Shown: one piece after another, positions 3,123 to 41,484 of the stretch
Position numbering within the stretch: the stretch's first letter is position 1
Layout: every line of letters starts with the position of its first letter
Source of the DNA: Escherichia coli
Lineage (GTDB): Bacteria; Pseudomonadota; Gammaproteobacteria; Enterobacterales; Enterobacteriaceae
Length of the DNA stretch: 64,000 nt
Strand: one strand, 5' to 3'
Assembly: GCF_003334815.1 (NCBI RefSeq)
Contig: NZ_QOWO01000018.1
Made by a program: the position numbers and the translations under genes
Notes under the pieces: model-generated
Told to the model about the DNA's origin: nothing
Database searches by the model: none
What the model saw: only the letters and a program-made list of their open reading frames with translations

Positions 3123-3746
3123 ATGTCAGGTCTGCCACAGGGCAGACCAACGTTTGGCGCTGCGCAAAACGTGAGCGCGGTGGTGGCGTATGACTTATCT
3201 GCCCACATGCTGGATGTCGTGGCACAAGCTGCCGAAGCCCGGCAACTGAAAAATATCACCACCCGCCAGGGATATGCCGAAAGTCTGCCATTTGCCGATA
3301 ACGCATTTGATATTGTTATCAGCCGTTATTCTGCCCATCACTGGCATGATGTTGGTGCAGCACTGCGAGAAGTGAATAGGATATTGAAACCTGGCGGTAG
3401 GCTGATTGTGATGGACGTAATGTCTCCGGGTCACCCAGTGCGCGACATCTGGTTACAGACGGTAGAAGCATTACGCGATACCTCTCACGTACGAAACTAC
3501 GCCAGCGGTGAGTGGTTGACGTTAATCAATGAAGCCAATCTGATAGTTGATAATTTAATTACAGATAAGTTACCGCTGGAATTTTCTTCATGGGTCGCGA
3601 GAATGCGTACGCCAGAAGCGTTAGTAGACGCTATTCGCATTTACCAACAGAGCGCATCGACAGAGGTGAGAACGTATTTTGCCTTGCAGAATGATGGCTT
3701 TTTCACCAGTGATATCATCATGGTAGATGCACATAAAGCGGCATAA
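3123..3746 (+). CDS. yafE: SAM-dependent methyltransferase (type 11-like)
   Basis: 207-aa ORF immediately after yafD; methyltransferase-like motifs (DIVISRYSAHHW, LKPGGRLIVMD). Confidence 0.7.
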   Translation: MSGLPQGRPTFGAAQNVSAVVAYDLSAHMLDVVAQAAEARQLKNITTRQGYAESLPFADNAFDIVISRYSAHHWHDVGAALREVNRILKPGGRLIVMDVMSPGHPVRDIWLQTVEALRDTSHVRNYASGEWLTLINEANLIVDNLITDKLPLEFSSWVARMRTPEALVDAIRIYQQSASTEVRTYFALQNDGFFTSDIIMVDAHKAA

Positions 3747-37931: not shown

Positions 37932-40376
37932 TTACCCCAGCGCCTCCACAATCACAATCGCCGCCCGTTCTCCCGCCTTGCCATCCATAAACGCATCGCA
38001 ATAGTGATGGCGAATCTCCGTAAGCCGCGCCTGCACCGACCCCCAGTCAAACGCCTCTGACAACAAATAACGCAGTTCTGCAACATCATGAGCAACCGGC
38101 AATATTTCGCGGATTCGCTGGTCGGCGCTCTCTGCCGTGGAATAACTTTTCTCACCGTCGAGCAAATCATTCATGCCCGGAAAGTCGAGCAGGATCACCC
38201 GCTTATCAACGTGGATAGCATCGAAAATAAACCCGCTGTTATCGGTCAGCACGTAATCGGCTTTTGCCAGCAGCGCCAGCGTGTGGCGGGCGGAGTCGGT
38301 GCGCTGTTTTAAATGCCTGCGCACCAGGGCCAGCGATGCTGCTTCTTCCGGGCGTGAGCAGGTGCCATGGTGCAGTTTGCAAATCAGGTTCACATCACCG
38401 CTCAAGCGGCCCAATTTTTCAGCCCAGTGGGGCAGGGAGCTTAATGCGCCAAACGTTGGGGCATAGAGCACCGTAGGTTTACGGTAATCTGATTGGATGT
38501 TTTCCGGCAACGCGCGATCGAACGTGCCGTTATGCCAGGCGTCGAAGCGCGGGTTGCCGACCACTTTTGCGCTGCCGAAATGCGCCAGCGCCTGCTGACT
38601 GTAGTGGCTATAACACAAAATGCTTTGGTAAAAACGATTCCAGTCGGCGTGGTTCCACGTCTCTTTGGCTAAGCCGTACATAGCGCGGATGTTCACCGCC
38701 GCCAGGCCATTGAGCGCAGGCGTGTGGTAGGGGCTGACCAGGCATTTCACCCGCTGACCATGTGTCTGCATTTCTGACAGACGCATACCTTTAAGCTGCG
38801 GATCGTCGATGTTTTTCAGTGTTTCCAGCATCTCATCAAGAAACGGTTTAAACACGCGGTCATTGATCACTAGTGTGCAGCTCTGCCCCTGCGCCTGTAG
38901 AGCGGTGATGATTGGGCGGTACAGCGTGTAGTGGAATGAGGTTTCCATAAAAAAGCCGATGGTATCGGCGATGGGTAATGTAGATGGCTTGGTGGCTACG
39001 GGTAACTTATTGAAATAGTGAGCAATATTATCAGTCGTTTTTTTCTCGATATCACTAAAACCCGGTCGCTGGTAGCAAAGGCTCGGGTAACAGGCCAGCC
39101 ATTTGTCGGCGCGTAGCAGCGGCTGCCAGCAGGCTTCCAGCGAGTGCTCATCGTTGCTCATCTGCTGCGCCAGTTGCGGGTAGTAGCGGCTGTTCACCAG
39201 ATACGCGCACACTTTGCGGCAGTCCCGCGCGTGCACCAGCCCCGGCAAACTTTTTAGCATCGTTCCCTGCGAAATTTCGCCACCGAGGATCATCACCTGC
39301 CAGGGAATTTTCGCCAGGCTCGCCAGCAGCGTGTTCAGTACCTGAATATGTTTCTCCTGCTTGAGAATAACCGCGTCATCTTCCAGCAGCAGGTAGTTTT
39401 GCCAGCCGTGCTGTTGCGCCAGGCGCAGCGCCTGTAAGTGCGACTGACGGCGGCCCCGTTGACCGTTTTCATCTTCACTGGCGGCAAGGCGGGTGATCTT
39501 CTCAGGTGGAATATGCAGCAATGCCAGTTCTTCACGGATCTGTTGTAAGCGATCCGGGCGTTTATCCAGATTCAGCAGAACGATCTGATCGATCGCCTGA
39601 TGGTTGATCGCCTGGTGATGAGTGGCGTTATGCAGACTCAGATAAGCATTGCGCAGCAGCGGATCGCGGACGATATCCGTAAGCGCCGCGTTTACTGGCG
39701 TGCTGGCCCCGAGAATAAAATCTTTATCAAAGGTGTTGTGACTATGCGAGATACACAGAATCGTGCGCTCGCCGGGCAGTTGCAGCGGGTTTACGCTGAA
39801 ATTGTCGGTGAAACGTTTCTCTTCGCCTAAATTGCAATCATCGTCGTAACGGTGCTTTTTCAGGTAGTTACGGTGATAGCAAAAGGTGCCGTTGAGGATG
39901 TTATGCGGGCCAAAGCTGCGGCTTTGAAAGATGCGGTTGATGTGGCTGTACCAGATGGGGATCTGATCGGAGCCGGAGATGAGCGCCCGGTGTTTTTGCA
40001 TCATGGCGATGGTGTAAGAGATTTTATCTGCCGGGTAGTAGTCGTCATCGTCCATGCAGAGGATGTATTCGCCGCGCGCCAGTTCGTTGAGCATGTTGCG
40101 TTTTTTGCCCAGCGGCAGTTTTTCCGGGTGATGGATGTAGCGGATGTTAAAGGCTTCCGGCGTGCCATTGGTCAGGCGGTCGATGATGTGTTGATGGCTT
40201 TGTGGGGAATCGTCGAGGATGATGAGTTCGCGGCGGTCTGCCGGGTAATCCTGATAGCGGTACATATAGAGCAGGTACGGCAGGAATGCGCCGCGGTTCC
40301 AGGTTGGCGTGACGACGCTGACAAACGGTTTTTCGCGGTGGGTGTTGAGTGTTTTGATGATGGTTGGTGTTGGCAT
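37932..40376 (-). CDS. Multidomain glycosyltransferase (N-terminal GT-A/GT2-like, central GT25-like, C-terminal TagB/TagF-like CDP-glycerol glycerophosphotransferase)
   Basis: ORF 37932..40448; ATG at 40376 chosen (upstream residues lie in the inverted-repeat element); motifs VSVVTPTWNR, ILDDSP, DDDDYY, central VLLNLDKRPDRL, C-terminal VLYAPTF / YVLTDNSGFIFDAIHVDKRVILL. Confidence 0.65.
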   Translation of the reverse strand: MPTPTIIKTLNTHREKPFVSVVTPTWNRGAFLPYLLYMYRYQDYPADRRELIILDDSPQSHQHIIDRLTNGTPEAFNIRYIHHPEKLPLGKKRNMLNELARGEYILCMDDDDYYPADKISYTIAMMQKHRALISGSDQIPIWYSHINRIFQSRSFGPHNILNGTFCYHRNYLKKHRYDDDCNLGEEKRFTDNFSVNPLQLPGERTILCISHSHNTFDKDFILGASTPVNAALTDIVRDPLLRNAYLSLHNATHHQAINHQAIDQIVLLNLDKRPDRLQQIREELALLHIPPEKITRLAASEDENGQRGRRQSHLQALRLAQQHGWQNYLLLEDDAVILKQEKHIQVLNTLLASLAKIPWQVMILGGEISQGTMLKSLPGLVHARDCRKVCAYLVNSRYYPQLAQQMSNDEHSLEACWQPLLRADKWLACYPSLCYQRPGFSDIEKKTTDNIAHYFNKLPVATKPSTLPIADTIGFFMETSFHYTLYRPIITALQAQGQSCTLVINDRVFKPFLDEMLETLKNIDDPQLKGMRLSEMQTHGQRVKCLVSPYHTPALNGLAAVNIRAMYGLAKETWNHADWNRFYQSILCYSHYSQQALAHFGSAKVVGNPRFDAWHNGTFDRALPENIQSDYRKPTVLYAPTFGALSSLPHWAEKLGRLSGDVNLICKLHHGTCSRPEEAASLALVRRHLKQRTDSARHTLALLAKADYVLTDNSGFIFDAIHVDKRVILLDFPGMNDLLDGEKSYSTAESADQRIREILPVAHDVAELRYLLSEAFDWGSVQARLTEIRHHYCDAFMDGKAGERAAIVIVEALG

Positions 40377-40401
40377 GGTGTTTGGGTGAGTTAATGGGTG
40401 A

Positions 40402-40548
40402 ATGTGATGAATGTGCGCGCTGATGCCCTCACCCCAACCCTCTCCCACAGGGAGAGGGAGAAAATCAGCGCCGATTTTAACACTGTGCTCGATCGGTCCC
40501 CTCGCCCCTTTGGGGAGAGGGTTAGGGTGAGGGGCAAAGCGCGCACAG
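40402..40548. mobile_element. MITE-like element with about 35-bp terminal inverted repeats (family unassigned)
   Basis: Left arm tgtgcgcgctgatgccctcaccccaaccctctccc (40402..40436) and right arm, reverse-complemented, tgtgcgcgctttgcccctcaccctaaccctctccc (40514..40548); internal palindrome ccctctccc/gggagaggg. Confidence 0.55.
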
Positions 40549-40554
40549 AGCGAC

Positions 40555-41484
40555 TCACGTTAGCAGCGAAAACGCTGAAAGCAGCGGGTCGGCGGCACAT
40601 AACGACTGAATTTGCTGGCGAACCAACAGCGCATTTTCACTGGCTCGCCAGCGTTCAAACATGGCAAAGAGGGCGAAAATATCCTCCTGCCGCAGCGAAG
40701 AACCATCCAGCGTCCATAAACTGATTAACGTGCGGAGGAGATAAAAATCGCACACCAGCGGGAAATAATCCGCCCCGTCAGTCTGCCCAATCACATCGTG
40801 GTAAACGCGGTAAATCAGCCAGTTACGCATCATCCAGGGCGCGGTGGCAAAATGCTGTTGCCAGGTGGTTTGCCACTGCGTCTGAAGCTGCTGTTGTAAC
40901 AGGGCTTCGCTGTTAGCGTCATGCAGCGTCAGCAAAGGCATCTGCAACGGCAGCGAAGTTTTGCGCGGGCTTTCCGGCAAAATCGACCAGTCAAACGTAA
41001 AACTCCCGAGTAACGTGGCCAGGTGACGCGCCAGCTGTGGCACGGGCGGCAGCTGGGCGAACTGTGCCTGTAGGATGCCTTTTTTCGCATGATCGGCCAG
41101 CGCCTGCGGCAGCGTCGTCAAACGGGCAAGAATATCTCCGTCTCTGCCCGGCATTTTACTGGCGCGGGAGAGCAGGATACCGACGGCATACAATGACAGT
41201 TCTGGTGTTAAATCACGGAGCGTGAGGGTACTCAAAATCACCTGGTTTACTATCGCATCGCGCGCGGAAAGCTCTGCGGCATTTTCTTCCACAGGACGGT
41301 AGGTGAGCTGTAAATCAAAGGCCCTGACATCGTTGAGCATCGCTTCGCAGCTTTCTGGCTCTGTCAGCATCAGGCTCAGGCGAATCTCGTTTTTCCACAC
41401 CTTGCGGACGTATAAAGGCGAACCGGGGTATTGCGTCATAAAATTGCGCACGTATTCCGGTTCGTAACATTCAATAAAACTCAT
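40555..41484 (-). CDS. Hypothetical protein (Flag-2 accessory, unknown function)
   Basis: 309-aa ORF from the ATG at 41484; no recognisable motifs; sigma-54-type promoter upstream. Confidence 0.6.
   Translation of the reverse strand: MSFIECYEPEYVRNFMTQYPGSPLYVRKVWKNEIRLSLMLTEPESCEAMLNDVRAFDLQLTYRPVEENAAELSARDAIVNQVILSTLTLRDLTPELSLYAVGILLSRASKMPGRDGDILARLTTLPQALADHAKKGILQAQFAQLPPVPQLARHLATLLGSFTFDWSILPESPRKTSLPLQMPLLTLHDANSEALLQQQLQTQWQTTWQQHFATAPWMMRNWLIYRVYHDVIGQTDGADYFPLVCDFYLLRTLISLWTLDGSSLRQEDIFALFAMFERWRASENALLVRQQIQSLCAADPLLSAFSLLT

Follow-up and report, generated by a model that had tools for sequence, protein, structure and literature searches.

What is the inverted repeat that fills most of the spacer between two genes of the Flag-2 modification operon of Escherichia coli, and does it regulate that operon, move as a unit of its own, or simply reside there? 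In the window, i.e., the whole stretch of 64,000 nucleotides that was analysed (contig NZ_QOWO01000018.1), a sequence-only reading had noticed this repeat and taken it for an unrecognised, MITE-like element of 147 bp, which could either be a miniature transposable element or fold in the mRNA and act as an attenuator or stabiliser for the downstream gene. The window is indeed E. coli DNA, with 651 bp round the element 100% identical to many complete E. coli genomes, and the region is annotated in ATCC 8739 as a Flag-2 flagellar locus. The element was also placed correctly between a 309-aa hypothetical gene and a glycosyltransferase gene. The first of these, upstream on the minus strand (40555..41484), encodes a LafV/FliB-like lysine N-methylase according to the RefSeq annotation of the identical locus, where some records name it lysine-N-methylase, and to PMC6993521, which assigns LafV, a lysine N-methylase of the FliB type, to the flag-2 variable region VR1. 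Its TGA stop codon (40555-40557) lies 6 nt from the element. The downstream gene (37932..40376, minus strand) encodes a glycosyltransferase (GT) of 814 amino acids by RefSeq annotation, and its ATG (40374-40376) lies 35 nt past the element, in a context that is kept in 8 other taxa. Of the 178 bp of the lafV-GT spacer, the element proper occupies 137.

Anatomy and identity of the element

The inverted repeat is real, but its extent had to be revised: the composite runs from 40412 to 40548 (137 bp, no strand assigned), and the first 10 nucleotides formerly counted in (40402-40411) are flank. The two terminal arms, each 35 nt in length, lie at 40412-40446 and 40513-40547 and have 86% complementarity, pairing at 30 of 35 positions without gaps rather than at the 31 reported before, and the composite as a whole begins and ends with TGTGCGCGC ... 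GCGCGCACA(G). The internal ccctctccc/gggagaggg palindrome was found as described, in the left arm at 40438-40458, where it reads CCCTCTCCC-aca-GGGAGAGGG; it is perfect, and was recovered in 0 of 100 shuffles. The composite is 100% identical in many E. coli genomes, and is conserved as a unit at Flag-2, phnK-phnL and yjdP-phnP. A separate, minor feature of this end of the spacer is an 8-nt tandem direct repeat, TGAATGTG-a-TGAATGTG, at 40399-40415, which overlaps the left end of the element.

The identity of the element was given by its arms. An intrastrand triplex motif, TMECO, which had earlier been named BoxC in the 1990s and PIT element by Hoyne et al. in 2000, was analysed by Holder et al. 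in 2015 (PMC4666352), and that paper gives its consensus as CCCTCNCCC-N3-6-GGGNGAGGG-N3-GGGNGAGGG. This consensus has exactly two exact matches in the 64 kb, namely the two arms (40426-40458 on the minus strand and 40499-40533 on the plus strand), against 0 expected from shuffles, and a pattern search of the window returned no BoxC copy besides these two. Among the TMECO motifs of K-12 given there, nos. 7, 11 and 15 (type A-mm, the loop TTA denoting type A) have exactly the sequence of the right arm. The left arm differs at one base from no. 20 (type B), reading TTG instead of TCG in loop 2. K-12 is stated there to carry 23 TMECO motifs, with inverted pairs at 5 loci, each pair invariably made of one type A and one type B, and the pair in the window follows this rule. 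Lastly, Table S8 of PMC4666352 lists, for ATCC 8739 (NC_010468), TMECO no. 119 at 3694841-3694806 and no. 120 at 3694882-3694915; the two entries match the arms in the window base for base, and they lie within the stretch that matches the window at 100%. This exact copy has therefore been catalogued already, and the element consists of two BoxC repeats in inverted orientation, one a type-A and the other a type-B unit, rather than of an unrecognised sequence.

The agreement with the BoxC/PIT/TMECO family extends to every feature compared: exact consensus in both arms, inverted A+B pairing, an intergenic position, many copies per genome, and the entry in Table S8. Nothing essential differs from what PMC4666352 describes; the B arm has TTG in loop 2, where CCG or TCG is usual, and the layout with the tails outward and a 40-bp core is the less common of the two found among the K-12 pairs, being that of 1 of the 5. 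Thus, the literature already contains the family, its A+B pairing rule and the present copy. Among the papers searched, nothing relevant on BoxC/TMECO was found after 2015. Another tabulation gives BoxC a length of 56 bp and about 32 copies in E. coli. BoxC repeats were reportedly studied by Bachellier et al. in the 1990s. With the family described in that decade and re-analysed between 2000 and 2015, the locus carries little weight as a discovery.

A stack of 29 motifs from 15 loci, aligned on the G-rich strand, allowed a clearer view of how the composite is built. Each stacked motif was found to lie inside a longer conserved unit, in which type-A motifs are preceded by the head flank ...GCTCGATCGGTC and followed by the tail GCAAAGCGCGCACA, and type-B motifs by the head ...GCGCTGGTTTTCT and the tail CATCAGCGCGCACA. 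The two arms of the window element are accordingly separate units of about 60 bp, arranged as a reverse-complemented B unit, both head flanks and an A unit, and their outward tails supply the terminal GTGCGCGC/GCGCGCAC. From left to right, the element starts with the tail flank of the type-B unit (40412..40424, minus strand), which in minus-strand reading is the same CATCAGCGCGCACA that was kept after every type-B motif in the stack. It is followed by the type-B-like BoxC/TMECO motif CCCTCTCCCTGTGGGAGAGGGTTGGGGTGAGGGC (40425..40458, minus strand), a consensus match that contains the small palindrome and corresponds to ATCC 8739 no. 120. The 40-bp core (40459..40498, no strand assigned) consists of the head flanks of both units, AGAAAATCAGCGCC... 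for B and ...GTGCTCGATCGGTC for A, as defined by the stack of 15 loci. The type A-mm motif CCCTCGCCCCTTTGGGGAGAGGGTTAGGGTGAGGGG (40499..40534, plus strand), likewise a consensus match and identical to ATCC 8739 no. 119, and the type-A tail flank CAAAGCGCGCACAG (40535..40548, plus strand), of a kind that is kept after type-A motifs, complete the composite. Each arm shows a three-block layout of pyrimidine, purine and purine.

The sequence-only reading had proposed a BLASTN count of copies, on the understanding that a unique element would favour a local regulatory hairpin. When the 147 bp were compared by blastn with 5426 complete E. coli genomes, matches were obtained at 78,723 places in 5400 of them, with a median of 16 per genome, and only 55 of the 78,723 places were on plasmids, nearly all being chromosomal. 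The element thus belongs to a dispersed family and is not a locus-specific hairpin. The copy in the window and all paralogues fetched are intergenic, and PGAP had annotated "none" under every match of the query. Leaving BoxC repeats unmarked in this way invites their rediscovery as novel MITEs or hairpins, and it is mainly for annotation that the present identification has value. In a scan of the element against Rfam, no model matched at its gathering score; the sub-threshold matches were to plant and animal miRNA hairpin models, and these were rejected as generic matches to a long hairpin.

Copies at other loci and the question of mobility

Whether the composite moves as such was examined through its copies elsewhere. 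The complete arrangement, core included, recurs at phnK-phnL with 86.6% identity over 134 bp and at yjdP-phnP with 81.5% over 122 nt. At cpxA-yiiM the core is longer and at K-12 lldD-trmL it is unrelated, and the outer GTGCGCGC ends are absent from both loci. At K-12 mrcB-hrpB the order itself is permuted to A unit followed by B' unit, with the tails inward and the head flanks outside the motifs, so that the BoxC arms are to be regarded as modular units, much like the REPs in BIMEs. Each of the six composites examined is found on the 3' side of one or more genes. The K-12 copy at yjdP-phnP (TMECO no. 22) was considered as a clean single BoxC and rejected as such, since comparison with strain SJC33 revealed a decayed doublet, in which the B' arm is short of 12 bp (CCCCGGCCCTCT) and has therefore lost its consensus match.

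The phnK-phnL spacer holds a BoxC doublet in E. coli EC20 (401-534), and such a doublet occupies it in 546 E. coli genomes. Among 40 entries sampled down the ranking, every locus without BoxC had a spacer 66 bp shorter, some with flanks 100% identical, and in K-12 this spacer (197-306) contains a BIME made of two REPs, which takes up precisely that slot. None of the sampled loci had an empty slot; the only states seen were BoxC doublet and BIME.

In many respects, the element does resemble the MITEs of bacteria (ERIC/IRU, Correia/NEMIS, RUP), with which it shares its size, terminal inverted repeats, multiple copies and a long RNA hairpin if co-transcribed. It differs from them, however, in having no target-site duplication, no fixed outer boundary, and modular units that occur singly or permuted. 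A scan of 8 copies for target-site duplications found that the longest flanking direct repeats did not exceed the level of shuffles, with the exception of the element's own GCGCGC. Since target-site duplication is a defining feature of a MITE, the element was not filed as one. What stands of the MITE-like description is therefore its terminal inverted repeats, small size, non-coding nature and multiple copies; the duplication that had been proposed as a check is lacking, and the units also come singly, in threes and in permuted order. We know of no report of a parent IS or transposase with ends that match BoxC.

A further likeness is to REP/BIME sequences and REPIN doublets, which are also short, G+C-rich palindromic units located 3' of genes, often in inverted doublets of two types, and polymorphic between strains, to the extent that BIME and BoxC doublet share the identical phnK-phnL slot in different strains. 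Nonetheless, BoxC units are about 60 bp long with a three-block purine/pyrimidine motif, in contrast to the simple 35-bp stem-loop of REP. A REP consensus of the GCCGGATG...CATCCGGC type was not found in the element, and direct comparison with the K-12 phnK-phnL BIME showed the sequences to be unrelated; the earlier statement that the element is neither REP/BIME nor ERIC was correct. No link of BoxC to a RAYT-type transposase is known to us.

These comparisons bear on the proposal that the 137-bp composite moves as a whole, through a transposase that would act in trans and recognise its terminal inverted repeats or hairpins. The proposal would account for a small, non-coding, multi-copy element with terminal inverted repeats, for the presence of the whole composite at unrelated loci with 82-87% identity even though the core is unneeded for pairing, and for the presence at phnK-phnL of a doublet in place of a BIME, with flanks that in some strains are 100% identical; moreover, transposition of the hairpin-recognising IS200/IS605 or RAYT type would leave no target-site duplication. 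Against it are the shuffle-level flanking repeats in the 8 copies, the lack of a clean empty site at Flag-2 or phnK-phnL, the units that are single, in threes or permuted A-B', the missing outer ends at cpxA-yiiM and lldD-trmL, and the rarity of plasmid copies. PMC4666352 likewise reports no association with transposons, phages or plasmids. We thus consider movement of the composite by such a transposase highly doubtful. Conservation of the entire composite, core included, at unrelated loci nevertheless hints, as far as sequence comparison goes, at some copying mechanism that would go beyond a purely passive view. A particular form of it, in which BoxC doublets rather than single units would be the replicating entity, in the manner of REPINs and through a hairpin-recognising enzyme that makes no target-site duplication, is a conjecture to which we give similarly little credence. 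If true, it would mean that BoxC competes with BIMEs for the slots behind stop codons in operons and that doublets, once inserted, flip in place, and it would explain both the recurrence of the composite at Flag-2, phnK-phnL and yjdP-phnP and the alternation of BoxC with BIME at phnK-phnL.

Structural states of the Flag-2 spacer

The Flag-2 site proved to be strongly polymorphic. In E. coli N96 (401-537) the element is flipped between its terminal palindromes: the window copy, when flipped, is 90.5% identical to the N96 copy, compared to 66.5% unflipped, and the flanking coding sequence is 90-91% identical. The two are therefore the same long-resident element in opposite orientation. Searches specific for the junctions found the window-type junction in 631 genomes and the flipped type in 13. 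Flipped alleles carry an extra 10 nt at the left junction, GCCCCCCTTATCC against TTC in the window, and the junction sequence therefore varies with orientation. The available portion of PMC4666352 holds no mention of this flip or of the other alleles at the Flag-2 site.

Beyond E. coli, the orientation of the window is shared by Escherichia sp. E1V33 and a Citrobacter MAG. Pseudocitrobacter vendiensis has the flipped orientation, with an element identical to that of N96 at 137 of 137 positions. Together with the difference of about 9-10% between the window and N96, this identity suggests that this part of the Flag-2 variable region may have been exchanged between genera. In P. faecalis, also flipped, a type-A motif is followed by a type-B tail in the right arm; such a chimera is consistent with exchange between the arms, as judged from their sequences. 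In a Pseudocitrobacter MAG (2811-2989), the A unit and its head flank are tandemly duplicated, giving three BoxC motifs in the order B'-core-A-core-A. By contrast in number of units, E. whittamii and Escherichia sp. MOD1-EC7003 retain the A unit only, with a stub of the core.

Alleles devoid of BoxC were also encountered. In Citrobacter youngae, whose LafV is 53% identical, the spacer (3440-3505) has a small hairpin that resembles a terminator, GGCCGGG-tgaatg-CCCGGCC and then TTTTT. In E. coli URN1-2021 and MS8320 (500-570), a 46-bp unalignable spacer has the hairpin GGCCGG-gaaaa-CCGGCC at the same position. The lineage of these two strains is about 9% divergent from the window allele (about 91% identical), and because of this divergence and the unalignable spacer, the boundaries of insertion cannot be read at Flag-2. 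In the URN1-type allele, moreover, the first GT codons contain an indel of 6 nt. Overall, across Escherichia, Pseudocitrobacter and Citrobacter, the lafV-GT spacer exists in five states: two orientations, one unit, three units, and none. It is thus a compact natural example of the rearrangement of a BoxC palindrome. PMC4666352 describes TMECO loci as unusually variable and palindromic pairs as prone to partial deletions, and the rearrangements at Flag-2 and yjdP-phnP match this statement. The modest interest that remains in the locus lies in this five-state spacer with its flip in place and in the alternation of BoxC and BIME at phnK-phnL, both of which bear on how BoxC spreads.

The variability could also be ascribed to an intrastrand DNA triplex that would stall replication and would have been favoured by selection as a local generator of variation in the Flag-2 variable region. 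Each arm has the appropriate pyrimidine-purine-purine layout, the element lies in flag-2 variable region VR1 (PMC6993521), and the site is strongly polymorphic. Furthermore, PMC4666352 reports a purine-motif triplex in vitro for a sequence identical to the type-A motif, the isolated strand forming a stable triplex that blocks DNA polymerase in vitro; the same source, however, found no triplex in duplex DNA or by in vivo DMS footprinting. Selection for variability is in any case speculative, and since the inversion, arm loss and unit duplication are products of any long palindrome, a triplex is not needed for them. Overall, we regard a selected triplex as unlikely.

The reading that we prefer, and hold to be very probably correct, is that the element is a known, mainly passive or selfish structural repeat, which destabilises its own locus and has at most a REP-like effect on mRNA; such doubt as is left in it concerns almost entirely function and not identity. 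Inversion between inverted arms, loss of an arm, duplication of a unit and conversion of one arm by another are what fold-back and template switching normally produce at long palindromes during replication. The BoxC doublet would thus occupy a slot 3' of a gene as a mainly passive or selfish repeat, and at replication, when it is single-stranded, its long palindrome and purine/pyrimidine blocks would fold back. Template switching and slippage at the folded strand could then give rise to the flips and deletions that were observed, and the three-block layout of purines and pyrimidines may add stalling of the polymerase.

Folding of the transcript and its possible effect

The long stem-loop that had been foreseen in the mRNA was recovered by RNA folding. 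In the minus-strand, gene-sense RNA, the element forms one long hairpin of -96.4 kcal/mol (z = -9.6), and as single-stranded DNA it folds at -48.6 kcal/mol (z = -8.6). Orientation matters little to the RNA, the values in the two being -96.4 and -94.6 kcal/mol, and the potential to form a hairpin is present on both strands. The GT start codon lies outside the span of this hairpin. Single-unit and BoxC-free alleles, on the other hand, have weak hairpins, with z of -1.1 to -1.8, and the strong hairpin is therefore dispensable at the lafV-GT position.

These results were weighed against the idea of a dedicated hairpin of the Flag-2 modification operon, acting as attenuator, terminator or stabiliser and thereby setting the ratio of lafV to GT expression. 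The high stability in the sense transcript, the location with the lafV stop 6 nt upstream and the GT start 35 nt downstream, and the retention of the hairpin in both orientations would all suit such a role, as would the small G+C hairpin that BoxC-free alleles hold at the same place, with TTTTT behind it in C. youngae. A terminator would nevertheless be expected to look different: behind the outer stem there is no U-run, the stem being followed by UUCAUCACAUUC, and the scans for terminators and promoters gave nothing convincing at the element, the terminator scan detecting a weak inner 7-bp stem only. In the tests cited by PMC4666352, PIT/BoxC motifs acted neither as promoters nor as terminators and left RNA polymerase unaffected. 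An attenuator, as suggested by the sequence-only reading, is accordingly disfavoured on both counts. The same element is also found in unrelated operons, and the gene pair has been preserved in E. whittamii and Escherichia sp. MOD1 with only one unit between the genes, which forms no significant hairpin. A dedicated regulatory hairpin is, in our judgement, distinctly unlikely.

With no U-run and, in the tests cited by PMC4666352, no promoter or terminator activity, a REP-like barrier to 3'-exonucleases would be the most plausible effect of the mainly passive doublet on RNA, and a stabilisation of the upstream message is possible by analogy with REP. Such a role fits the alternation of BIME and BoxC in the phnK-phnL slot and the position of six of six composites 3' of a gene. 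Thus, the lafV-GT transcript would carry, in either orientation, a hairpin of about -95 kcal/mol that is probably neither a terminator nor a dedicated Flag-2 regulator. At most it may act like a REP/BIME, as an obstacle to 3'-exonucleases that would stabilise the upstream lafV segment and uncouple lafV from GT. The lafV-GT spacer is a convenient place to test this REP-like effect of a BoxC doublet on a polycistronic mRNA.

Two further observations concern the sequences on either side of the element. Between the element and the first GT codons, a tract of 72 nt (40340-40411, minus strand) contains 43% C and 1% G, as compared to 29% C and 25% G in the operon segment, and this C-rich, G-poor tract is conserved in all 8 other taxa. 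Because its composition is that of a rut site, Rho-dependent polarity on the GT gene is conceivable. The GT start codon in this tract is preceded by CTCACCCAAACACC (CTCACCCAAACACC-ATG), and has no visible Shine-Dalgarno sequence. On the other side, within the last codons of the lafV-like gene and about 15 nt before its stop, a terminator-like CGCTGCTTTCAGCG followed by TTTTCGCTGC is present at 40573-40586 (minus strand), which may be a chance match.
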